Positions 6,759 through 58,635 of a DNA stretch of 64,000 nucleotides are shown here, piece after piece. The stretch spans positions 129,456 through 193,455 of the forward strand of contig JADZBD010000007.1 of the NCBI GenBank assembly GCA_020852255.1. The letters are read 5' to 3'. The translations under genes were made by a program, and so were the position numbers. How positions within the stretch are numbered: position 1 is the first letter of the stretch; each line of letters starts with the position of its first letter. This DNA comes from Bacteroidia bacterium (GTDB taxonomy: Bacteria; Bacteroidota; Bacteroidia; JADZBD01). The notes under the pieces are model-generated. The model was not told the origin of the DNA. It saw only the letters and a program-made list of their open reading frames with translations, and searched no databases.

Positions 6759-8792
6759 TTGAGAGTACGAATCAAAATGAGCATTAAAAACATACTCATA
6801 TCATTGTTAGTGTGGTTCTGTTTCTGTCCAACTAACTTATTTTCTCAAGTCGAGTGGCAGAAGACAAATGCACAAAGTGCTACCCAATCGAAGCTCGATT
6901 CTTTATGGGTCATTTATAAGAATGCAACTAATATTGATACTATTCGCTTTAAAGCACTTAATGAAATTTTTAAACATTTTAGGAATACGAAACCAGACTC
7001 CGCTTTCGTCTTAATAGAGGAACTATTGGTGTTGGCGCGAAAAGTTAATCGTGCAGAATACGAAGGGAATGCTTTACTATCGCTGGGAATTCTATATGAG
7101 CAGCAGTCTGATTATCCCAAAGCACTAGAGTATTTATTAAGTGCCTTGCAGCTTTTTGAGAAAGTAAAGCATAAGGTAGGGATATATGCTTGTCTGGCGA
7201 ATATTGGCTTTGTCTATGAGAATCAAAAGCAGTTCGATAAATCGATGCTATATAGACAAAGGGCACTCAAAATAAGCAGAGAGATTGGAGAGCCGAAGAT
7301 TATTGGAAAGGCATATAATAATTTAGGATCAGAATATTTTAATGTCGGCCAACACAAGAAGGCATTGGAAAATTTTCTTCTTGCGCTCTCCTACGCAGAA
7401 AAACATGGAGATAAAAGAGAGGAAATTATTAGTCTGAATAATATTGCAAACTGTTACACAGCCTTATCTGATTACAAAACAGCGAAGGAGTATTATCTTA
7501 GATCTCTTCATGAAAGGAAGAAAATCGGAGAGATGAGTATGTTAGGCATGGCGTATTTTAACCTCGGGGAAATGTATTTACGTATGAATAATCTCGGACT
7601 CAGCAAAGCATATTTTGATTCCGCACAATTTGTAAGCGAAAGTTACAATAAAAGGGAGTTGTTAAGTGCCATCTACGAAAACATGTCCAATGTTTGCATC
7701 AAATCGAAAGATTATAAAGGAGCCTACGAATATTTTGTGAAGTATAAATCGATACAGGATAGTATTTATAATCGTGAGAATAGCATCCGGCTAGGAGAAG
7801 TAAAAACAAAATATGAAGTTGAAAAAAGGGAGACTGAGTTAAAACTGAAGTCTGAGAAACAAGAGGCAATTGCTAAAGAAAAGCTTCAACAAGAGCGGAT
7901 GCAACGTAATTACTTTCTGGGTGGGTTTGTTTTAGTGTTTATTGTTGCTGCAATAATCTTTAGAAGTTATCGCCAAAAAAGCAAAGCAAATTCCATAATC
8001 CTTGAGCAAAAGAATGAAATCGAGTCCAAGCATAAGGAAATCACAGATAGTATTAATTATGCGGAAAGGATACAGCGAAGCTTGCTTGCTAGTTCAGAAG
8101 TATTGGACTCCTATTTCGATTATTATTTCATCGTGTTTGAGCCTAAGGATGTGGTAAGTGGCGATTTCTATTGGGTGTCCCAGCTTACCGAGGGCAAACT
8201 CATGCTTGTGGTTGGAGATAGTACTGGACATGGCGTGCCCGGCGCAATTATGAGTATTGTCAATATTACTTCCTTGGAAAAATCAGTAGAATATCAGGGG
8301 ATTTGCGAGCCCGCATTAGTTCTTGATGAAACACGATCAAAAATTATTAATATATTAAAGAGAGATGGAAGCAGTGAGGGCGGGAGGGATGGAATGGATT
8401 GCAGCTTGGCTGTGTTCGATTTTAAGAATAGAAACTTAATTTTCGCGTCTGCAAATAATCCAATTTGGATTGTTCGGGAGAAGAAGGTCATCGAGTTGCT
8501 TCCTGATAAGATGCCGTTAGGAAAAGGCGAAAAGGATATGATTCCATTTAATCAGCACTTTTTTTCGTTTTTGCCGGGGGATTCAGTGTATATGTTCACG
8601 GATGGAATAGCAGACCAGTTTGGTGGACCACAAGGGAAAAAGTTTAAATATAAGCAGCTTAAGGAAATGATAGTTGAGGTGAATAACCTACCGATGAAGG
8701 AGCAAAAGAGGGTAATTTCAGCGCGTTTGAATGCGTGGAGAGGTAATCTTGAACAGGTGGACGATATCACTATTCTTGGACTAAGATGTTAA
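6759..8792 (+). CDS. TPR-repeat sensor protein with transmembrane helix and C-terminal PP2C-type (SpoIIE/RsbU family) serine phosphatase domain
   Basis: Signal/TM at N-terminus, ~7 TPR-like repeats (…AYNNLGSEYFNVGQHKKALE…), a TM helix (FLGGFVLVFIVAAIIF), and PP2C motifs GDFYWV, VGDSTGHGVPGA, DGMDCSL, FTDGIADQ. Confidence 0.7.
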   Translation: MRVRIKMSIKNILISLLVWFCFCPTNLFSQVEWQKTNAQSATQSKLDSLWVIYKNATNIDTIRFKALNEIFKHFRNTKPDSAFVLIEELLVLARKVNRAEYEGNALLSLGILYEQQSDYPKALEYLLSALQLFEKVKHKVGIYACLANIGFVYENQKQFDKSMLYRQRALKISREIGEPKIIGKAYNNLGSEYFNVGQHKKALENFLLALSYAEKHGDKREEIISLNNIANCYTALSDYKTAKEYYLRSLHERKKIGEMSMLGMAYFNLGEMYLRMNNLGLSKAYFDSAQFVSESYNKRELLSAIYENMSNVCIKSKDYKGAYEYFVKYKSIQDSIYNRENSIRLGEVKTKYEVEKRETELKLKSEKQEAIAKEKLQQERMQRNYFLGGFVLVFIVAAIIFRSYRQKSKANSIILEQKNEIESKHKEITDSINYAERIQRSLLASSEVLDSYFDYYFIVFEPKDVVSGDFYWVSQLTEGKLMLVVGDSTGHGVPGAIMSIVNITSLEKSVEYQGICEPALVLDETRSKIINILKRDGSSEGGRDGMDCSLAVFDFKNRNLIFASANNPIWIVREKKVIELLPDKMPLGKGEKDMIPFNQHFFSFLPGDSVYMFTDGIADQFGGPQGKKFKYKQLKEMIVEVNNLPMKEQKRVISARLNAWRGNLEQVDDITILGLRC

Positions 8793-50036: not shown

Positions 50037-50058
50037 TAGCCTTCAGAAGTGAAGGCTA
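50037..50058 (+). terminator. Rho-independent terminator downstream of tRNA-Pro (possibly bidirectional)
   Basis: TAGCCTTC-AGAAGT-GAAGGCTA is an 8-bp stem followed by TTTCTTCTTCTT. Its 3' arm overlaps the stop codon of the convergent acyltransferase gene. Confidence 0.4.
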
Positions 50059-51258
50059 TTTCTTCTTCTTGCCCTTTACCTTCTTTACCGTCTCCATTTT
50101 AAAGAGCTTCTTTGTAAAGTGAATACTGAAGCGATCCACGGTGATTGTCATGATCCATGCGAGTAGGCCCGACAGCAAGAGATAGAGAATAAATGTAATC
50201 AGTCCGGTTTTATTATAACCCCAGTCGAGATGATGATCCAGGAAGAACGAGGAGGCGAAAGAACCCAGTACGAGGGGATGAAGCAAGTAAAGCGAAAATG
50301 AAATGTTACCCAGGAAAAGCAACGGCTTTGTGCCCAGGATCTTTTGCATGATCGGGCTCATGATAACCGCCGCAACCACCATTATTGCGCCGATTGAGTG
50401 TATGAAAACGAAGTGATCCAAAATAGCCTGATTCTTTATAAAATCCCACCAGCTCATATACGCCCAGGCGAGCGACGGAAAGGAGCCGAGCAGCAGACCG
50501 CCTGCCATGAGTGTCCAGGGCAGAACCGTGCGGGAAAGAATACCTTCCGACTTTAGCGCGAGTTTTTCAAGAGAAAAAAGCATCATGCCGGCAAAAAAGC
50601 CAATGTAATGATCCATGTCGAATAAGAAGGCCAGGATGATAGCTGCCAGGAAGGCAATATTTTTTGATTTCAGTTTATGGGTTATTGCCAGCAATCCGAA
50701 TACCAGAAAGGATCCGTAAAGCTCTTTTGACATCGTCCACATAGAGGTGTCATAATCATGCCATCCCTGAAACATCACCCGGTAAAAGAAAAATTCCAGC
50801 CAGGTGCCGAAGGAAGGATCCATGCGCCAGAGAGTTCCCATCCATGGTTCAGAGTGAGCGATTACGGATACTTCCAGGTGTTTATAGGCATTCAGGCGAA
50901 GGAGAATAAAAGAAAGGAGCAGGGTAAATCCTACCGGGATGAAAAGCCGGAAGTATCTTCGTTTGGCTGCATTCGTAAGAATGGAAAAATCCCCCTGGCT
51001 GAGGTATTTATGACTCAGCACGAACCCGCTCAGCACAAAGAAGATCATGACGCAGAAATTTCCGTTGGCGATGACATTGAGTGGACTCGAATAGAACCAT
51101 AGTTCCAGCCCTTCGGTATGTGCTCTTTCGGGATTCCCGTCGTAGGCAGCGGTGTAAAATCCCAGCATAAAGTGGTGCGCAACCACGGCCAGAGCCGCTA
51201 ATCCCCGCAAACCTTCAAGGTATCCTATTTTGTTCTGGTTGTCCGGGAGCAGCATCAT
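50056..51258 (-). CDS. Acyltransferase family 3 membrane protein
   Basis: N-terminal GLRGLAALAVVAHHF and ~10 TM helices. 400 aa. Confidence 0.75.
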   Translation of the reverse strand: MMLLPDNQNKIGYLEGLRGLAALAVVAHHFMLGFYTAAYDGNPERAHTEGLELWFYSSPLNVIANGNFCVMIFFVLSGFVLSHKYLSQGDFSILTNAAKRRYFRLFIPVGFTLLLSFILLRLNAYKHLEVSVIAHSEPWMGTLWRMDPSFGTWLEFFFYRVMFQGWHDYDTSMWTMSKELYGSFLVFGLLAITHKLKSKNIAFLAAIILAFLFDMDHYIGFFAGMMLFSLEKLALKSEGILSRTVLPWTLMAGGLLLGSFPSLAWAYMSWWDFIKNQAILDHFVFIHSIGAIMVVAAVIMSPIMQKILGTKPLLFLGNISFSLYLLHPLVLGSFASSFFLDHHLDWGYNKTGLITFILYLLLSGLLAWIMTITVDRFSIHFTKKLFKMETVKKVKGKKKK

Positions 51259-51264
51259 GGCAGG

Positions 51265-52035
51265 TCAGTACCTCTTTAGGACACGTAAATGATGCGTATA
51301 GTTCCCGAGTTCCTCTTGAAAGATTCCCTGGTGATCGATCTTGTCGATCCTCACCTTGCCAGAAGCATGTAAAATACGATCAGGGGATAGCAGGATTCCC
51401 ACGTGAATGATTTCTCCGTCTTTATTATCGAAAAATGCAAGATCGCCTGCTTTGCTTTCTTCTAAAAAACTTAACACCTCTCCGAACTCCGCCTGCTGCC
51501 GGGCATCGCGCGGTAGCGGAATGCCGCAGTACCGGTAAACGGATTGTACAAAGCCGCTGCAATCTACGCCGAAGGGAGTGCGTCCGCCCCATAGGTAAGG
51601 CGCATGGATAAATTTCATTGCATAAGGAAGAAATTCACTGAGATCAGGTTTTTCCGGCTGGTGAAAATCACCCTGGAATGAATAAATGTTTTCGCCAAGC
51701 AGGAAACTCCCTGCAATCAGTCCTGGCAAAAGACAGCCGGCCGTAACGGGATATTCCTGTGTAAGCTTCCTGTCTTTGACCATACCGGTAATTCCGCTGC
51801 AAAGGCATACAGGATGGGTAGAAATATCCAGAAACTGTGAGTGGGAGAGGGAGGTTGCTTGCGCACTGTTTATCCAGCCTTCATACCGGTCGTGGGTGAT
51901 CCGGATCCTGTGCCATTCTTTACCTGACTCCAGAATTTCCGCTGTTTCACCAAAGAGCCATTGTGATACAAGTTCGGACTGGGAACGAGGTTCTTTCCGT
52001 ACGGGGACAATGCTGAGGGTTGAAACTACATACAT
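51265..52035 (-). CDS. NlpC/P60 (C40) family peptidase with SH3-like N-domain
   Basis: Catalytic Cys context DCSGFVQSVY, His in GDLAFF…HVGI. 256 aa. Confidence 0.75.
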   Translation of the reverse strand: MYVVSTLSIVPVRKEPRSQSELVSQWLFGETAEILESGKEWHRIRITHDRYEGWINSAQATSLSHSQFLDISTHPVCLCSGITGMVKDRKLTQEYPVTAGCLLPGLIAGSFLLGENIYSFQGDFHQPEKPDLSEFLPYAMKFIHAPYLWGGRTPFGVDCSGFVQSVYRYCGIPLPRDARQQAEFGEVLSFLEESKAGDLAFFDNKDGEIIHVGILLSPDRILHASGKVRIDKIDHQGIFQEELGNYTHHLRVLKRY

Positions 52036-53216
52036 TACAGGCTTTCAATTACCATTGCGCTGGCGCCTCCGCCTCCGTTGCAAATTCCGGCTGCGCCTAT
52101 CTTCGCATTGTTCTGCTTAAGTACATGGAGCAGTGTAACGACGATGCGTGCCCCTGAGCAGCCGAGTGGATGCCCCAGGGAAACGGCTCCGCCGTTTACA
52201 TTCACTTTTTTCGGATCCAGTTTCATTTTTTGCATGTTTACCAGTCCTACCACCGAAAACGCTTCATTGAGTTCGTAAAAATGAACATCCTCCATTTTTA
52301 AACCCGCTTTCGCTACCGCTTTGGGCACAGCGAGCGAGGGGGTAGTGGTAAACCATTCCGGAGCCTGTTCTGCATCAGCATAACCCCGGATTTTTGCGAG
52401 TGGCTTTAATCCGAGTTGTTCCATTTTCTCTTTACTCATGAGCACCACAGCGGCAGCACCATCATTCATTGTGGAGGCATTAGCGGCTGTAACTGTTCCC
52501 TCTTTACTGAACACTGCCCGTAACTCTGGAATCTTGTCGAATTTTACGCTTTTGTATTCCTCGTCCTCCTTGAAAAATACCGGATCTCCTTTCTTCTGAG
52601 GAATACCGACGGGAACGATCTCTGCAGTAAATTTTCCGTTTTTCCAGGCGTCGGCGGATCGTTTGTAAGATTCGATGGCAAAATCATCCTGCTCTTTCCG
52701 GGAGATATTGCATTCTTTGGCGCACAGGTCTGCAGCTACTCCCATGGCGTAATTATGATAAACATCCGTGAGCCCGTCTTTTGCAAGGCCGTCAATGGCG
52801 CTGGCATTTCCGTATTTACTTCCCCAGCGCATGGTGTCCAGATAAAAAGGAACCTGGCTCATATTCTCCATTCCTCCTGCGATCACCACATCGGCGTCGC
52901 CTAGTAAAATGGACTGTGCGCCCTGCATAATGGCCTTCATCCCCGAGGCGCATACTTTATTGACCGTCGTACATTGAACATGATCAGGAAGCCCGGCAAA
53001 TTTGGCGGCCTGGCGGGCGGGTGCCTGTCCCAGGTTGGCTTGTATGACACAGCCCATGATGACTTCCTGTACTTCGCCGGGAGCGAGCCCGATTCTATCC
53101 AACGCTCCTTTAATTGCAACAGCCCCCAGGCGGGGTGCAGGTACAGAAGCAAGAGAACCTCCAAAACTTCCAAGAGGAGTACGAACCGCGCTAACTATGA
53201 ATACTTCTTTTGCCAT
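52035..53216 (-). CDS. Acetyl-CoA C-acetyltransferase (thiolase II)
   Basis: VSAVRTPLGSFGG, active-site NKVCASGMKA, C-terminal GLVNMQ…CNGGGGA. 393 aa. Confidence 0.9.
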   Translation of the reverse strand: MAKEVFIVSAVRTPLGSFGGSLASVPAPRLGAVAIKGALDRIGLAPGEVQEVIMGCVIQANLGQAPARQAAKFAGLPDHVQCTTVNKVCASGMKAIMQGAQSILLGDADVVIAGGMENMSQVPFYLDTMRWGSKYGNASAIDGLAKDGLTDVYHNYAMGVAADLCAKECNISRKEQDDFAIESYKRSADAWKNGKFTAEIVPVGIPQKKGDPVFFKEDEEYKSVKFDKIPELRAVFSKEGTVTAANASTMNDGAAAVVLMSKEKMEQLGLKPLAKIRGYADAEQAPEWFTTTPSLAVPKAVAKAGLKMEDVHFYELNEAFSVVGLVNMQKMKLDPKKVNVNGGAVSLGHPLGCSGARIVVTLLHVLKQNNAKIGAAGICNGGGGASAMVIESL

Positions 53217-53219
53217 AAA

Positions 53220-53930
53220 CTAAAAGTTTGGTTTCAGTGTGTATTTGGAATAAAAATCAGCGATAACCTTAACTGCCTCATCGGCCGTATCCACAATGGA
53301 AAAAAGATCAAGATCTTCCGCACTTACATTATTTTCCTCGTTCAACATGGTATTGCGGATCCAGTCAAGAAGTCCTTGCCAGTATTTTTTTCCCACCAGT
53401 ACAGTTGGGAAGTGAGCGATCTTGTTCGTTTGAACCAGCGTGAGGGCTTCGAACAATTCGTCCATGGTTCCAAAACCACCCGGCAAGGCAATAAAACCCT
53501 GCGAATACTTCAAAAAGATGGTTTTGCGGACAAAAAAGTAATCGAAGCTGATCAGCTTATCGTAATCGATGTAGGGATTGTGTTTTTGTTCGAAGGGAAG
53601 CACGATGTTAAGTCCAACGGATTTTCCCTGGCCGGCTTGTGCGCCCTTGTTGGCCGCTTCCATAATACCCGGGCCTCCGCCGGTGATTACGCCGTAGCCT
53701 TCTTTGGTCAGTTTATAGGCGATCTCCTCTGCCAGCTTATAATAGCGGGTGCCGGGCTTTGTACGGGCGGATCCGAAAACAGAGACGCAGGGACCGATAC
53801 GCGCCATCTTTTCAAATCCCTCCACAAACTCTCCCATGATCTTGAAGAGTTGCCAGGAATCCCGGGCTTTGATTTCACTCCAGTCCTTGGATTCGAATGC
53901 CCGTCGGATCTTGTCGTCCTGTTCCGACAT
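53220..53930 (-). CDS. LOG family protein (TIGR00730; cytokinin riboside 5'-monophosphate phosphoribohydrolase-like)
   Basis: GGGPGIMEAANKGA and PGGFGTMDELFE motifs. 236 aa. Start overlaps the stop of the upstream 177-aa gene by 1 nt. Confidence 0.8.
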   Translation of the reverse strand: MSEQDDKIRRAFESKDWSEIKARDSWQLFKIMGEFVEGFEKMARIGPCVSVFGSARTKPGTRYYKLAEEIAYKLTKEGYGVITGGGPGIMEAANKGAQAGQGKSVGLNIVLPFEQKHNPYIDYDKLISFDYFFVRKTIFLKYSQGFIALPGGFGTMDELFEALTLVQTNKIAHFPTVLVGKKYWQGLLDWIRNTMLNEENNVSAEDLDLFSIVDTADEAVKVIADFYSKYTLKPNF

Positions 53931-54463
53931 CAGGCTGTGGGTTGCTGTTCCTCCATTCTTTTGCGGGCGAGGTCGCGGGCAAAATCAATAAACACCTTAT
54001 ACGCAGGCGTGAAGGTGAATTTTTCTTCCGAACGTTTTTCAATGATTGATCTACGGCTGAGCATATTGATAAAGTTTTTTCTGGAATCTTTATCCTTCAG
54101 TTGTTTGTTGGAGTGGATCAGATCAATATAAGCAGAATTGGCAAAGTAATTTTCCACCTGGCTGATTTCGAATTCCGCATAGTTCAGCTCATCAATAAAG
54201 TTCTTCCCGTCGCGATCCAGTTCATAGCAGATCAATGCAAAAAATATGCAGATATCGCGGGAGGTGATTTCGCTTGTTTCCGAACTGATGAGGTAGGAGT
54301 AGTCTGTGGTAACTTTCAGCTCATAATCGAAAGAGGCCTTAAAGAATTCTGAATAAAATTCTTCCTTTTCGCGGAGTTCAATGAATTCCGGCTCGTTGCG
54401 TAACAGGAACTTCCCGTCAAGCAGGCTTTGCACGATGGTTTTGTGATACTTAGAATATTCCAT
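53930..54463 (-). CDS. Hypothetical helical protein, third gene of the SMC-like ATPase module (KITE/MksE-like by size only)
   Basis: 177 aa, no signal peptide, acidic. Overlaps the upstream 397-aa gene by 14 nt and the downstream LOG start by 1 nt. Confidence 0.5.
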   Translation of the reverse strand: MEYSKYHKTIVQSLLDGKFLLRNEPEFIELREKEEFYSEFFKASFDYELKVTTDYSYLISSETSEITSRDICIFFALICYELDRDGKNFIDELNYAEFEISQVENYFANSAYIDLIHSNKQLKDKDSRKNFINMLSRRSIIEKRSEEKFTFTPAYKVFIDFARDLARKRMEEQQPTA

Positions 54464-55643
54464 TTTTGTCTACTTTGATCTTTGGTACACGATAGGTCAT
54501 ATTTTCGGTCCGAATCCGGTGTTGGGAGGATTTATCGGGGAACTCCAGTTTCAAGTCCTCCTCAAACAGCAGTGTGGTAAATGCAAAGAATTTTTCTTCG
54601 TCGAATACTTCTTGTTTTTCGTTCCATTCTGTCCCGAGAAAATCAAAGAAATCCTCAACGGGGAGCGACTTGTCCAGCTTATCCTTATAGGCTTCGCGGT
54701 CGAACAGCCAGGCAGGCTTGCCACTTCCGGCTTCATTGATATATACTTTTTCCACCCGTTCGAATTGTTCCCAGAATTCTGTAGCGTTCAGCTCCATGTG
54801 GCGATTGTATACCATGTCGCGTGAGGTTTTGAGCATCTGAGGCACAGGCACATCGAAAGGATCCTTAAGAAACTCGATGAATCCGGAAAGAATGATGGAT
54901 TCCGTACGAATACGCTCGATCAGCGGTAACAATTCATTGGTAAGGATCTTCGATTGCCGCAGCAAATCGTCGTTGGTCTGCAGCAGAAAGTAATATAATT
55001 TTTCGAAGGCCTGGCGTGTTTGTTCTTCACTTACCAGTAATCGTTTCTCGTTAGCGAAATTGGCAATCTCGAAGAGCTTATTGGCGATGGAACTCGTATG
55101 GTGGATATCCAGAATTTTATTCATCGGGAGGATATAATATTCTATCCATTCCGATGCCTTCCGGATCTTATCGCGGTAATCTACTTTTTCCATATTGGCC
55201 TTCAGCTCCCGGGTCTTAGCGAGCAGCTTGAGGGTATTGTTTTCCACACCTTCAGAGAAATCGCGGGTTTCCGAGGTAAGGTCCGTCAGCCGCTGCATCA
55301 GTATGAACTTCTCCTCGTGTACGCCCTTTCGGATTTTCCGGAAAAGTTCTGAGATCGAGTGGTGATACTTCTCGATCGTTTCCGGAAGCATAGGTTTGAA
55401 TTCATTCATGATGAATTCCAGCAACCCGTAAAACACGGTGCGGAATTCATAATCCGTATTCACATTCTTCAGGATCTTGTACTCAGTGAGCTTTCCTTCG
55501 ATATCGTGCCCGTGACGTCCGCAGATTTCCTTCAGGGTTTCCTTCCGGATATAACCATCACGCGACTGCGCGTCGAAGAGCTCCTGGATCGGTTCATAAT
55601 AATGCCAGAGGAAATAGAGTATGGTTTTGGGTTCGGTCCTCAT
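54450..55643 (-). CDS. Hypothetical all-helical protein, second gene of the SMC-like ATPase module (kleisin/MksF-like by size only)
   Basis: 397 aa, K/E-rich, predicted helical, no enzymatic motifs. Starts 3 nt after the ATPase stop. Confidence 0.5.
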   Translation of the reverse strand: MRTEPKTILYFLWHYYEPIQELFDAQSRDGYIRKETLKEICGRHGHDIEGKLTEYKILKNVNTDYEFRTVFYGLLEFIMNEFKPMLPETIEKYHHSISELFRKIRKGVHEEKFILMQRLTDLTSETRDFSEGVENNTLKLLAKTRELKANMEKVDYRDKIRKASEWIEYYILPMNKILDIHHTSSIANKLFEIANFANEKRLLVSEEQTRQAFEKLYYFLLQTNDDLLRQSKILTNELLPLIERIRTESIILSGFIEFLKDPFDVPVPQMLKTSRDMVYNRHMELNATEFWEQFERVEKVYINEAGSGKPAWLFDREAYKDKLDKSLPVEDFFDFLGTEWNEKQEVFDEEKFFAFTTLLFEEDLKLEFPDKSSQHRIRTENMTYRVPKIKVDKNGIF

Positions 55644-55646
55644 GGC

Positions 55647-58316
55647 TTAGTTCTCGTTGACGTAGGACGGCGACCGTTCACCGTAAATGGCATTCACATT
55701 CTCGGAGATCGTGATCTTTCCCTTCTGCGGATAGATCATGTAATACTTGCTGAAGCCCGGAACGGGGTCGGGTGCTGCAAAGATGGGAATGAACTGATGC
55801 TGCCTGCAGAATTTAACAAGCTCCGGACGATTGTGTTTGTCGATGGTGGCTACCTCGTCAATAAACAGGGCGATCTTGTTCTCTGTGTCGTGAAGGGCCA
55901 GGCGGTTGATGATGCTCATGATGATCACCAGGCGGATCATCCGGTCCGTACCATCGGATTCTACCTGATGGGCCAGATCCACTTTCTTGATGGTTCCTTT
56001 GATGTCGAGATGTAATTCTATATCAAATAGTTCATCAAAAGAAATCTTTCTGGAATTGTCCAGGTACTGACTCAGGATCTTCAGGTTTTCACTTTCATGA
56101 TCGAGTTCAAGGATGAGCTGATCTGTGAATTCCTGGATCACAGAAATCGCTTTGATTTCATCCAGAAGCTTTTTATTGTCGACCAGTTCGATGCGTAGCG
56201 ACTCAATATCTGAGATGCGCGTTTTACTCAGACCATAGTTGAATTTATTGTAGATATAACTCTTGAACTCTTCATACCGGCGGAGGAGGGTATAAGCCGG
56301 ATTGGCGAATTGTGTGGATATGGACTTCAGCAGTCCGTCGATACTCCGCTCTTTGTCGCCAACACACGCAATTTCCTCCTCAAGGAATTTGATAAAGAGT
56401 TCCTCGTCGGCAATATTGCTGTCGATTCGGTACCTCAGATCATGGAATGCTGCATCCTTTTTGGATTTGAGGTCGGCACGATCGTGTTGGTGTACTTTGA
56501 TTTTATTGTAAAGCGCTTCCAGTGCTTCATTGCTCTCGTATTCTGCCGGTTCGATATTCATTTCCTCAAGTTCCAGCTTTTGGTGCTTAAGTTCACGGGC
56601 GCGCTCCTCCAGTGCCAGTTTTTCCCGTAGCAATTCATCCAATGACTCTTCCTTTCTAACGCTTTCCTGTTTCACATCGGAGAGTTCCCTTTCCAGCTTA
56701 CTTTTCTCATCTGTAAGTTTATCCAGCTCTGCTTTGATGCTGTTCAGCTGTGTTTCCAGCTTGGGTTTATTCCGGATACGCCGAAGCTTTTCGTTAATCA
56801 GGTCGATTTCTGATTTTACCTGCGTGAGATCCTTCTGAGCTTTGTCAAGATCCTTCACTACTTTATAGATTTTCTGAAGGCTGTCTCTTTCTTTGGTTTT
56901 ATATTCAAGCTCCGATTTGATTTCTTCCGCACTCCGGAATTCTTCAAGCTCCAGGTTTTTGGAAATGTCAATTTCTCCGTCGAAAATCTTAAGCGTTTTA
57001 CCCTTTTTTGTGATTTTGGAAACCACCTGTTTGCCGGGCAGGGATTTCATTTGTTCAGAAAAAACCGAGTTCATCAGTTTCCGGACTTCCGGCTGATCCG
57101 AAATCTGATTGATGAGAAGGTCCTCGTAGTTCTTGATCTGCGTTGCAAGCTGATCAATTTCAGCATCAAGGGCAGCAATCCTTCCTTTCAGTTGGTCTGC
57201 GGTATAGTTTTGATTCTCGATCTGGGTAACAGACACTTCGATTTCTTTTCTCTTTTTATCCAGGTTCTCCAGCGCTTCCAGTAAAAACTTTTCCGGCTCA
57301 AAGGCATTGATCTCTTTAAGTTCTTTGTCGAGATGGTCAAAGAACTGCGCCTTATTCCGTACATCGGAGATCTTCTCTCCCATTCGTTGGTTCAGCTCAT
57401 TTTCTCTTGGCTTCAACACTTCATGCAGCTCCGTTTTTACTTTAGTAATGTCGGTGTCTTTCTTAATTGCCTTTTGTTCCAGTTCGGGAACGATTTTGGC
57501 GTAATTATGGTTAAATGCGTAAAGAAGTTCCCGGACCACATTGGTTTTTGAGTTGTACAGGTTCACCTTGTCACGGAAAGCCAGAAAATCTTCTTTAATA
57601 TGCCGGATTGCACGGATCTGCTGATTGATTTTCAGTAGATCTGCGATATCTTTTTTATTCTTTTGGGAAAAATTCAGGTTATCGTTCTCCCTGTTATCGG
57701 AAATGATGAGTGCTTCCTTGAGCGACTTATTATTGATCAGCTTTGTATTGATCAGGTAGCGGTAAACTTTGGAAAAATTATTCGAGAGGCCTTCCGTTTT
57801 TACGGTGTCTTCCAGCCACACCACCGAATTGTTCTTTCTTCCACGTTGGTAGACGTAATTAAAAACATCCGTCTTGGTACGAAACTGCATGGGAGGGAAC
57901 CCTTCGTTGGAGAGCGTTTCTTTGATCTCATCAAAGTCCATGAGTCGTTGTCCCCCTTTCTCCGTCACAAAGAAATGTTCCTCACGGTAAGGAGTTTCGA
58001 ATTTGAAATACTCCAGCTCACCTTCGCTGTCGCGCTTTACCAGAATGCAGTAATGTCCTTTTTTGGTGACTTCAAAAACAATAAACGAGTTATTGGGACT
58101 AGGAAAATAGTGGTGGATCGTGTCTTTATCGCCCCGGCGGTTTCCGGAGAAGGTCATTTTATTCCCATCCACAATGAATAGAAAGTTGAGGGCGTAGATG
58201 AGGGTAGATTTCCCGATGTTATTCGGTCCAACCAATTGCAGGGAATCGCAGTCGTCCATGCGAATCTCTGCTTTTCCATATAATTTGGAGTTAAGTACTA
58301 CAATTCTGCTCAGCAT
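55647..58316 (-). CDS. SMC/Rad50/MukB-like coiled-coil ABC ATPase
   Basis: N-terminal Walker A LVGPNNIGKSTLIYALNFLF (AAA_15/23-like). ~550 aa of heptad-rich coiled coil (…ELEEFRSAEEIKSELEYKTKERDSLQK…). C-terminal signature-like ESDGTDRM, Walker B IALFIDEV, D-loop. 889 aa. Confidence 0.7.
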   Translation of the reverse strand: MLSRIVVLNSKLYGKAEIRMDDCDSLQLVGPNNIGKSTLIYALNFLFIVDGNKMTFSGNRRGDKDTIHHYFPSPNNSFIVFEVTKKGHYCILVKRDSEGELEYFKFETPYREEHFFVTEKGGQRLMDFDEIKETLSNEGFPPMQFRTKTDVFNYVYQRGRKNNSVVWLEDTVKTEGLSNNFSKVYRYLINTKLINNKSLKEALIISDNRENDNLNFSQKNKKDIADLLKINQQIRAIRHIKEDFLAFRDKVNLYNSKTNVVRELLYAFNHNYAKIVPELEQKAIKKDTDITKVKTELHEVLKPRENELNQRMGEKISDVRNKAQFFDHLDKELKEINAFEPEKFLLEALENLDKKRKEIEVSVTQIENQNYTADQLKGRIAALDAEIDQLATQIKNYEDLLINQISDQPEVRKLMNSVFSEQMKSLPGKQVVSKITKKGKTLKIFDGEIDISKNLELEEFRSAEEIKSELEYKTKERDSLQKIYKVVKDLDKAQKDLTQVKSEIDLINEKLRRIRNKPKLETQLNSIKAELDKLTDEKSKLERELSDVKQESVRKEESLDELLREKLALEERARELKHQKLELEEMNIEPAEYESNEALEALYNKIKVHQHDRADLKSKKDAAFHDLRYRIDSNIADEELFIKFLEEEIACVGDKERSIDGLLKSISTQFANPAYTLLRRYEEFKSYIYNKFNYGLSKTRISDIESLRIELVDNKKLLDEIKAISVIQEFTDQLILELDHESENLKILSQYLDNSRKISFDELFDIELHLDIKGTIKKVDLAHQVESDGTDRMIRLVIIMSIINRLALHDTENKIALFIDEVATIDKHNRPELVKFCRQHQFIPIFAAPDPVPGFSKYYMIYPQKGKITISENVNAIYGERSPSYVNEN

Positions 58317-58562
58317 AAAATGGTGATATTTAGGTGGTTCACCCGGCTTATAGGCCGGATTTCATTGCCCCGCTAAATTAACAGAATGAGGGTGCAGAAC
58401 CCGGAAGGATTATCCACAAAAATGAGGCATTGTTAATAACTGATTCGGAGGTTTTCAACAGGACTCAGGCCTTGACTTAAAGTATTTCTTTAATATGGTT
58501 GTAGTGCCGGAAATTGGATTATAACTCCCTCATTTTTTAGCCTTTATGACAATTTGACTGTG

Positions 58563-58570
58563 TATATTTG
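58563..58570 (+). promoter_or_regulatory. Bacteroidetes sigmaA -7 element (TAnnTTTG) candidate upstream of grpE-dnaJ
   Basis: TATATTTG lies 66 nt upstream of the grpE ATG. Upstream TTG-containing sequence is at 58554, but the spacing is not ideal. Confidence 0.2.
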
Positions 58571-58635
58571 ACCGCTTGTCATGTTTTCCTCAATGGTCAG
58601 TATTTTGATAATTAAAGGAAAAAATTTGTAATAGA

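Follow-up and report, generated by a model that had tools for sequence, protein, structure and literature searches.

What kind of machine is encoded by three tightly packed genes, an SMC-like ATPase followed by two smaller proteins, in a 64-kb stretch of Bacteroidia DNA (64,000 nucleotides, hereafter the window)? The sequence-only reading likened them to MksB/MksF/MksE or Wadjet JetC/JetA/JetB and could not place the module with confidence. The locus contains the following features:

55647..58316, minus strand: gene of the JetC/MksB-like SMC ATPase, 889 aa (ORF and structure-model match)
54450..55643, minus strand: gene of the MukF/JetA-type kleisin, 397 aa (ORF and structure-model match)
53930..54463, minus strand: gene of the KITE subunit (MksE family), 177 aa (ORF and Pfam PF21980)
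53220..53930, minus strand: LOG-family gene, overlapping the KITE gene by 1 nt
58317..58635, no strand: intergenic region separating the ATPase gene from the divergently oriented grpE gene, presumed from its position to hold the operon promoter

The ATPase and kleisin genes are separated by 3 nt, and the kleisin and KITE genes overlap by 14 nt; this overlap is kept in most related loci and suggests translational coupling of the KITE gene with the kleisin gene. These ORF positions and spacings, together with the 1-nt LOG overlap, agree with what had been claimed from the sequence, as do the translated ATPase motifs and the absence of a Toprim, HNH or Mre11-type gene from the three-gene module. 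Hundreds of full-length homologues of each ORF and dN/dS values of 0.00–0.05 in close pairs show that all three are genuine genes rather than chance ORFs. Promoter and terminator scans returned no more sites than shuffled controls, with a sigma-70-type tool whose coverage does not extend to Bacteroidota promoters. The LOG gene was considered as a functional partner and rejected: LOG and thiolase genes adjoin the module in no related locus other than that of the closest relative (L001), which makes LOG an incidental neighbour.

The ATPase is arranged as two head halves separated by a coiled-coil arm:

residues ~1–217: N-terminal head half
residues 30–38 (58203..58229, minus strand): Walker A GPNNIGKST, translation checked
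residues ~218–397 and 463–696: antiparallel coiled-coil arm
residues 398–462 (56931..57125, minus strand): arm apex, a small non-coiled insert (~65 residues)
residues ~697–889: C-terminal head half
residues 786–791 (55944..55961, minus strand): signature-like ESDGTD, invariant in two family alignments
residues 817–821 (55854..55868, minus strand): Walker B LFIDE, from translation and alignment

The Walker A motif is invariant in a 34-sequence alignment except for I34, which is at least 90% conserved, and ESDGTD is also found in four of five distant clades. Judged by their position after Walker B, D826 and the invariant H840 would be the D-loop and H-loop. The motifs are invariant in family alignments that span both nuclease-bearing and nuclease-less loci. 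The AlphaFold model of the ATPase finds its best PDB matches in MukB (among its entries, 7nyw_A and 3euj_A) and JetC, ahead of Rad50, Smc, SbcC and LmuB. At 180 residues x 0.15 nm, the arm would measure ~27 nm. As to whether the arm carries a hinge or a zinc hook, the latter is absent, as the four cysteines (23, 90, 651 and 837) form no CxxC, and the apex is a putative mini-hinge. It contains a conserved motif, F445-D446-G447-x-I449 by alignment columns, and a predicted β-hairpin (residues 441–450), for which the model is tentative at pLDDT 50–67. Searches of the PDB by sequence, with single sequences and with profiles, were of no use for the three subunits and the JetD-like protein described below; for the ATPase, the hits, Beclin-1 among them, were chance coiled-coil matches. 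NCBIfam and PADLOC gave sub-threshold matches only, and these to the ATPase. Some ATPase homologues are called 'SbcCD ATPase subunit' in the JGI annotation.

The 397-aa protein had been described as all-helical, which the AlphaFold model corrects by showing β-hairpin winged-helix domains at both ends:

residues 8–81: N-terminal winged helix
residues 87–260: helical bundle
residues 261–315: disordered linker
residues 316–393: C-terminal winged helix

The best PDB matches of this model, by two methods, are MukF (3rpu_A and 1t98_B) and JetA. The 177-aa protein, which had been taken as free of motifs, matches the Pfam family PF21980 (MksE) over its full length (E = 8.6e-19, 68.9 bits, cut-off 27), with residues 5–162 aligned to profile positions 1–162 of 163. 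By this match the protein is an MksE-family KITE subunit. PF21980 is detected in all 81 of 81 KITE homologues, some of which are named 'condensin complex protein MksE' by NCBI; a literature search with this name or with 'PF21980' found no papers. The Pfam scan of the 177-aa protein reported no other KITE family, and Pfam did not match any of ten distant kleisin relatives. Comparison of the family alignments with E. coli MukF and MukE by hhalign gave probabilities <1%, but with a single sequence on one side and an Neff of ~2 on the other this negative carries no information. The Wadjet models of PADLOC, proposed earlier as a check, miss the window's system: the JetA and JetB models match neither the kleisin nor the KITE subunit, and the JetC model reaches the ATPase at E = 0.0026.

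The operon was compared across 80 related genome loci and five more distant clades. All 80 loci carry the kleisin and KITE genes and 77 of them the ATPase gene, the contigs of the other three stopping short. The three genes stay together in related loci, and the order ATPase-(nuclease)-kleisin-KITE on one strand is kept in all 80 loci and the five distant clades. This bears out the remark that the ATPase comes first, unlike in MukFEB, MksFEB and JetABC. Subunit identities co-vary among all three proteins across the five distant clades, and the three-gene form is retained across deep branches at ~50% amino-acid identity. The flanking genes are housekeeping genes that differ from locus to locus, and the module diverges at the same rate as its flanks. 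No fourth flanking gene is conserved in the related loci; the commonest neighbour family, found in 13/80, reads from its sequence as a radical-SAM/MiaB-like housekeeping gene. Searches of IMG/VR viral contigs and PLSDB plasmids found no relatives of the module.

In four of the 80 loci (L054, L064, L067 and L072), the ATPase gene is separated from the kleisin gene by a gene of 260–280 codons, and the same position is occupied in three of the distant clades (those of L081, L087 and L090). Its product is JetD-like, matching JetD_C (Toprim) with 26.3 bits (cut-off 22) and the PADLOC JetD model at 2.4e-6, and bears an invariant E155 and D198-Y-D200. A profile of these JetD-like proteins found no match in the window's 64 kb (best E = 0.13). 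The gene comes and goes between close relatives: L054 has the nuclease gene (~800 bp) and L061, at 92–93% DNA identity, cleanly lacks it, while L064 and L070, at 89% DNA identity, have 814 bp in one and 23 bp in the other. In L068 an internal deletion has left a remnant of ~11 codons from the start of the gene and ~54 from its end. The presence of JetD in some loci and the presence/absence pairs indicate a compact Wadjet-type JetC-(JetD)-JetA-JetB system that repeatedly loses its nuclease, and the nuclease gene has been deleted in the window's lineage and independently in several others. A four-gene version is >90% identical in Chryseobacterium, Aequorivita, Daejeonia and a Chitinophagales MAG, which points to horizontal transfer; its cultured carriers are Chryseobacterium sp. 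RR2-3-20, Aequorivita lutea and Daejeonia sp. YH14. In L081 the four-gene locus has genes for an AAA_11/AAA_12 helicase-like protein and an AAA ATPase next to it, and that of L090/L091 has an integrase.

Between close nuclease-less pairs, the dN/dS values of the three core genes are 0.00–0.05 at dS 0.1–2.3, which indicates strong purifying selection on the ATPase, kleisin and KITE core. The corresponding values of the nuclease gene are 0.10–0.16.

The module has the SMC ATPase head and arm, MukF-type kleisin, MksE-type KITE and co-directional operon of the MukBEF-like group. The MksE match and the structure models support the Mks- or Wadjet-like interpretation first drawn from the sequence, and the module that could not then be placed belongs with high probability to the MukBEF-like (Mks/Wadjet) family. 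We read it as belonging to a compact branch of this group confined to Bacteroidota, as lacking the nuclease and as having a chromosome-folding role, at a probability of roughly 0.6. In its ancestral or complete state, the operon of the family would run JetC-JetD-JetA-JetB, a short Toprim gene following that of the ATPase and preceding that of the kleisin. If the complex works like MukBEF, MksBEF and JetABC, two ATPase subunits would join at the apex, and the kleisin would bridge their heads, its N-terminal winged helix and bundle binding the neck and probably dimerising and its C-terminal winged helix binding the ATPase cap. A KITE dimer would sit on the kleisin. ATP binding and hydrolysis would load DNA into the ring and allow loops to be extruded. 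With JetD gone, the DNA would not be cut, and we infer that the complex most likely entraps or extrudes DNA without cleavage. It would then fold or help to segregate the host chromosome rather than destroy plasmids, as the nuclease-less MksBEF and MukBEF do; taken separately, such a chromosomal role has, by this analogy, about an even chance of being correct.

The module could instead still be a defence against plasmids or other mobile elements, either with a nuclease encoded elsewhere or by non-cleaving entrapment and compaction of small circles, as has reportedly been proposed for Smc5/6 silencing. The four-gene JetD-bearing versions within the family, the apparent horizontal transfer of one of them and the helicase-like, AAA ATPase and integrase neighbours described above speak for it, and the nuclease search covered 64 kb of the genome. 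However, every nuclease gene seen in the family is part of the operon, and a partner at another site would be without precedent there. The nuclease has also been lost repeatedly from a core under tighter constraint (dN/dS ~0.02 versus 0.10–0.16), the neighbours in the window's clade are housekeeping genes, and none of the relatives lies on the plasmids or viral contigs searched. Moreover, the Wadjet operons tested in B. subtilis needed all four subunits to suppress plasmid transformation (PMC10586767), which argues against a three-gene defence. We consider a defence role unlikely.

A functionless, decaying Wadjet remnant might explain the missing nuclease gene in the window and the deletion remnant in L068, but none of the three ORFs is disrupted, the ATPase motifs do not vary, deep branches retain the three-gene form, and dN/dS between nuclease-less pairs is 0.00–0.05; on these selection data, decay is highly improbable and already effectively refuted. 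Equally improbable, and already disfavoured, is an ATPase of Rad50/SbcC, RecN or LmuB type with two unrelated accessory proteins, for which there are the JGI names, a top PADLOC match to LmuB (E = 5.9e-6, 23.8 bits) and Pfam matches that are all sub-threshold and generic (AAA_29, AAA_15 and AAA_21), against structural matches led by MukB and JetC.

On a more tentative reading, in which the family is a separate type within the Wadjet group, it would offer a natural, ongoing case of a defence system domesticated into a condensin. MksBEF and MukBEF have been proposed to originate in this way, by descent from plasmid-cutting Wadjet through loss of JetD (PMC10586767, PMC7617805). The nuclease would be undergoing repeated loss in one freshwater Bacteroidia lineage while JetABC remained under housekeeping-grade constraint, and the family may show an anti-plasmid system becoming a chromosome organiser. 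So far this transition has been argued only from deep phylogeny; genome pairs of ~90% DNA identity that differ by the nuclease, a remnant, and a core under strong selection make it testable, and the cultured strains with the four-gene version make experiments feasible. The 'currently unidentified SMC complexes' that have been suggested to exist in some Bacteroidetes (PMC10197239) could, on the same tentative reading, include this family. It is small for a MukBEF-like machine, with an ATPase of ~885 aa and an apex of ~65 residues, and it is overlooked by both PADLOC, in which two of the three subunits find no match, and the 2025 survey. At the survey cut-offs (MksB >890 aa, MksF >=400 aa; PMC7617805), the ATPase (889 aa) and kleisin (397 aa) of the window are left out, as are most of their relatives.

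Among known systems, Lamassu LmuB and Rad50/SbcCD resemble the window's ATPase in having ABC-type heads whose halves are separated by an antiparallel coiled coil, but the module has neither the CxxC zinc hook and Mre11/SbcD partner of Rad50/SbcCD nor the LmuA effector and LmuC that accompany LmuB. Smc-ScpAB does not fit: Pfam finds no ScpA or ScpB domain, and the ATPase reaches 25 bits with TIGR02169 (SMC_prok_A), whose cut-off is 729. Compared by description, P. aeruginosa MksBEF is likewise a three-subunit, nuclease-less, MukBEF-like complex from a single operon, and the window's KITE subunit sits in the Pfam family named after MksE; the window's order is B-F-E, however, and its subunits are much smaller. 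Nuclease-less members of the Wadjet group exist, and that of P. aeruginosa organises the chromosome (PMC7617805, PMC10586767). The FEBG operons of Flavobacterium psychrophilum and Chryseobacterium indologenes, as given by the coordinates in the accessible part of the survey (PMC7617805), share the phylum and a short MksG (~280–320 aa versus 260–280 here) but are ordered F-E-B-G, with MksB of ~1080 aa and MksF of ~440 aa.

E. coli MukBEF provides the best structural matches for the ATPase and kleisin and also lacks a nuclease. It differs in its mukF-mukE-mukB order and in size, the K-12 mukB gene being ~4.46 kb against 889 aa here. The hinge of MukB is far larger than the ~65-residue apex of the window's ATPase, and the Muk families of Pfam and NCBIfam (MukF, MukE and MukB) do not match the window's proteins.

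Wadjet type I, JetABCD, is known from E. coli GF4-3 and P. aeruginosa PA14 and is the same system as MksBEFG/EptABCD. Its Toprim nuclease is missing from the window's module and from the 64-kb window, and its order is A-B-C-D, whereas the window's family has C-(D)-A-B. In the accessible part of Data S1 of the survey (PMC7617805), FEB, FEBG and GFEB are the only orders, and neither BFE nor BGFE is listed. The usual order is a habit of the MukBEF-like group that its mechanism does not demand. The family's proteins are shorter throughout than those of the Bacteroidota operons in the same part of Data S1 (PMC7617805): ~885 versus ~1080–1130 aa for the ATPase, ~400 versus ~440–490 aa for the kleisin, ~175 versus ~190–215 aa for the KITE subunit and ~265 versus ~280–400 aa for the nuclease. 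A fourth, miniature and Bacteroidota-specific type of the Wadjet group, ordered JetC-JetD-JetA-JetB and still losing its nuclease, is possible, and we propose it only tentatively. The likeness to Wadjet type I extends to an SMC ATPase, a MukF-like kleisin (winged helix, bundle, linker, winged helix), a KITE subunit and, in relatives of the window's locus, a Toprim (JetD_C) nuclease. The JetC and JetA structures match the models of the window's ATPase and kleisin, and the 295 Å arm of E. coli JetC (bioRxiv 10.1101/2025.03.10.642339) is close to the ~27 nm estimated for the window's ATPase.

The module on the minus strand of the window belongs, with a probability of about 0.85, to a compact family of the Wadjet/Mks group that is restricted to Bacteroidota and has the gene order JetC-(JetD)-JetA-JetB; the window's copy lacks the nuclease. 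In this notation JetC (MksB) is the SMC ATPase, JetD (MksG) the Toprim nuclease, JetA (MksF) the kleisin and JetB (MksE) the KITE subunit. The module genes and the genes that follow them are listed below in the direction of reading.

55647-58316, minus strand: SMC ATPase, 889-aa ORF
54450-55643, minus strand: kleisin, 397-aa ORF, 3-nt gap after the ATPase ORF
53930-54463, minus strand: KITE subunit, 177-aa ORF, 14-nt overlap with the kleisin ORF
53220-53930, minus strand: LOG-family gene (Pfam), 1-nt overlap with the KITE gene
downstream of the LOG-family gene after a 3-nt gap, minus strand: thiolase gene (Pfam)
51265-52035, minus strand: ORF resembling NlpC/P60 proteins by eye, 1-nt overlap with the thiolase gene
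after the preceding ORF, within 50056-53930, minus strand: 400-aa ORF, acyltransferase-like by eye

The ORF positions, the gap and the overlaps up to the LOG-family gene are as the sequence-only reading had them. The three module ORFs are genuine genes. Database relatives number 979 for the kleisin, 730 for the ATPase and 81 for the KITE protein, and the top matches are 100% identical proteins of a 'Bacteroidia bacterium' MAG, all annotated as hypothetical. Close same-strand packing continues downstream of the module (50056-53930). Because the LOG-family gene, the thiolase gene and further ORFs are also tightly packed there, such spacing looks like a general trait of this genome rather than evidence that the genes work together. 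The G+C content is 0.428 at 56001-58000, within the ATPase gene, against 0.45-0.50 across most of the window, which may just reflect a Lys/Glu-rich coiled coil.

The 177-aa protein is a full-length match to the MksE family of Pfam (PF21980; E = 8.6e-19; 68.9 bits, cut-off 27). This domain is present in all of its homologues, some of which are named 'condensin complex protein MksE' by NCBI. The earlier statement that the two smaller proteins carry no recognisable motifs thus holds for the 397-aa protein only, which has no match in Pfam, NCBIfam, PADLOC or PDB sequence searches. The 397-aa protein was modelled with AlphaFold2 from 30 homologues (pLDDT 71.7). The model begins with a winged helix (residues 8-81), continues with a long bundle of helices (87-260) and a linker without order (261-315), and ends with a second winged helix (316-393), so that the protein is not all-helical as had been described, and this predicted layout matches that of the MukF/JetA kleisins. 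The ATPase and kleisin models are both of moderate confidence, and the ATPase apex is badly predicted. The ATPase motifs noted earlier are present in the translation: GPNNIGKST at residues 30-38, ESDGTD at 786-791 and LFIDE at 817-821. Alignments show that Walker A, Q218, ESDGTD, LFIDE, D826 and H840 are conserved family-wide; within Walker A, I34 is at least 90% conserved and the other positions are invariant. The proposed check for a zinc hook found none in the ATPase, which has four cysteines only, all of them away from the apex, and lacks a CxxC motif.

A GTDB scan with one genome per species identified 265 stretches with a kleisin relative, the best 80 of which were fetched and examined. 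All 80 come from Bacteroidia/Bacteroidota-type MAGs. The record titles of L002, L004, L020, L061, L067, L071 and L075 (Bifidobacteriaceae, Gemmatimonadaceae, Vulcanococcus, Methylacidiphilales, Bifidobacterium and Competibacteraceae are the labels in question) are at odds with their clearly Bacteroidota-type operons, and these MAG contigs are probably mislabelled or contaminated public bins. In every fetched locus with enough contig, the three genes share a strand and follow one order, with an ATPase of 880-897 aa first, a kleisin of 394-406 aa second and a KITE subunit of 173-192 aa last. Most of the 80 retain the 14-nt kleisin/KITE overlap. When the flanking ORFs of these 80 loci were clustered, the three core genes were the sole common genes, and the next commonest neighbour family occurred in 13 loci. 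The neighbours read as putative housekeeping genes (a MiaB-like enzyme, chorismate synthase, topoisomerase I). Among the 80, the LOG-family, thiolase and grpE/dnaJ genes adjoin the module only in L001, the closest relative; the coupling to the LOG-family gene, remarked on in the sequence-only reading, is hence incidental, and LOG was rejected as a functional partner. The ATPase-kleisin gap is filled in L022 by a 206-aa ORF (7384-8004) that by eye resembles RDD-type membrane proteins, and in L031 by a 120-aa ORF (7612-7974) with MORN-like repeats by eye; the two are unrelated and have no homologues among the other loci. In L066 the same slot (7628-7994), where sister genomes have the JetD-like gene, consists of 4.1 tandem copies of an 88-89-bp unit with 90-91% matches; by eye every unit includes a segment able to form a hairpin, and the element may be REP-like or terminator-like.

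Four of the related loci (L054, L064, L067 and L072) carry a gene of 260-279 aa between the ATPase and kleisin genes, which matches Pfam JetD_C (PF09983; 26.3 bits, cut-off 22) and PADLOC JetD (2.4e-6). A nuclease-family profile search of the 64-kb window found nothing, in agreement with the missing nuclease partner of the sequence-only reading. More distant clades (22-41% kleisin identity), whose loci were looked up via the encoding contigs, include both forms of the operon, with or without the nuclease gene:

L081-L086: four-gene form, 886-264-403-174 aa
L087: four-gene form, 891-270-399-176 aa
L090: four-gene form, 874-280-390-178 aa
L089 and L093: three-gene form

The identities of the three core subunits co-vary across these clades, and the core genes are one co-evolving unit. 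Alignment of seven nuclease proteins, four of which match JetD_C, revealed a VEN/IEN motif with an invariant E155, followed by an HxYGR motif and D198-Y-D200; E155 is the counterpart of the Toprim Glu and D198-Y-D200 that of the DxD.

Close pairs of loci differ precisely in this gene. L054 has the nuclease gene and L061 lacks it; the two differ by a clean ~800 bp, and to either side of this their DNA is 92-93% identical. L064 and L070 share 89% identical DNA with a slot of 814 bp in one and 23 bp in the other. In L068, an ORF (7567-7998) fuses the initial ~11 codons to the final ~54 codons of the nuclease gene carried by its sisters L067 and L072; it is an internally deleted JetD-like remnant from which the Toprim core is gone. 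In the kleisin and KITE tree, nuclease-bearing loci stand beside nuclease-less sisters in two sub-branches. With an identity of only ~35% between the two nuclease lineages, the nuclease gene is old within that clade, and several losses have taken place.

Selection was estimated as dN/dS by the Nei-Gojobori method in nine close pairs, some with both members nuclease-less. The three core genes gave 0.00-0.05; the nuclease gene gave 0.10-0.16, where the kleisin gene of the same pair had 0.016. The module has diverged as fast as its flanks, and neither the viral contigs of IMG/VR nor the plasmids of PLSDB contained relatives. Horizontal transfer of the L081-clade version is suggested by its kleisin, which keeps >90% identity between Chryseobacterium, Aequorivita/Vitellibacter, Daejeonia and a Chitinophagales MAG. 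Cultured strains that have the four-gene form include Chryseobacterium sp. RR2-3-20, Aequorivita lutea and Daejeonia sp. YH14. In L081 (1-6127) the four-gene operon adjoins a 1348-aa AAA_11/AAA_12 helicase-like gene, an AAA ATPase and two genes without a Pfam match, a layout typical of defence islands, and in L090 and L091 a tyrosine integrase gene lies downstream. The L081-type four-gene version thus looks mobile and defence-like.

By analogy, the window complex would be an SMC ring bridged by its kleisin and able to entrap and extrude DNA with ATP. We favour a non-nucleolytic host function, because the nuclease is absent, constraint is very strong and the chromosomal contexts are stable; on the same grounds, an MksBEF-type role in chromosome folding or segregation is the likeliest, at roughly even odds. 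The main rival, a complex that is still defensive without an operon-encoded nuclease, is considered unlikely. A decaying remnant is disfavoured, since the selection data count against it. A Rad50/Lamassu-type assignment is likewise disfavoured by the predicted folds.

Wadjet (JetABCD/MksBEFG) is an SMC-based plasmid-cleaving system of which three types are recognised; the nuclease is absent from MukBEF and several other members of the group, and the MksBEF chromosome organiser of P. aeruginosa is thought to derive from JetABCD through loss of JetD (PMC10586767; PMC7617805; bioRxiv 10.1101/2025.03.10.642339). For two Bacteroidetes, a Hi-C study reported no known condensin and suggested that SMC complexes still to be identified are at work (PMC10197239). 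The 2025 survey of the Wadjet group required MksB >890 aa, MksF of 400-1200 aa and MksG in a flanking position only (PMC7617805). The accessible portion of its Data S1 holds the operon structures FEB, FEBG and GFEB only (letters for MksF, MksE, MksB and MksG), BFE or BGFE being absent there, and its Bacteroidota entries are canonical FEBG with an MksB of ~1080 aa (PMC7617805). The window ATPase has 889 aa and the kleisin 397 aa. Most relatives, too, are under one or more of the survey's size cut-offs, and in the compact family the nuclease gene sits not at the flank but in the middle of the operon.
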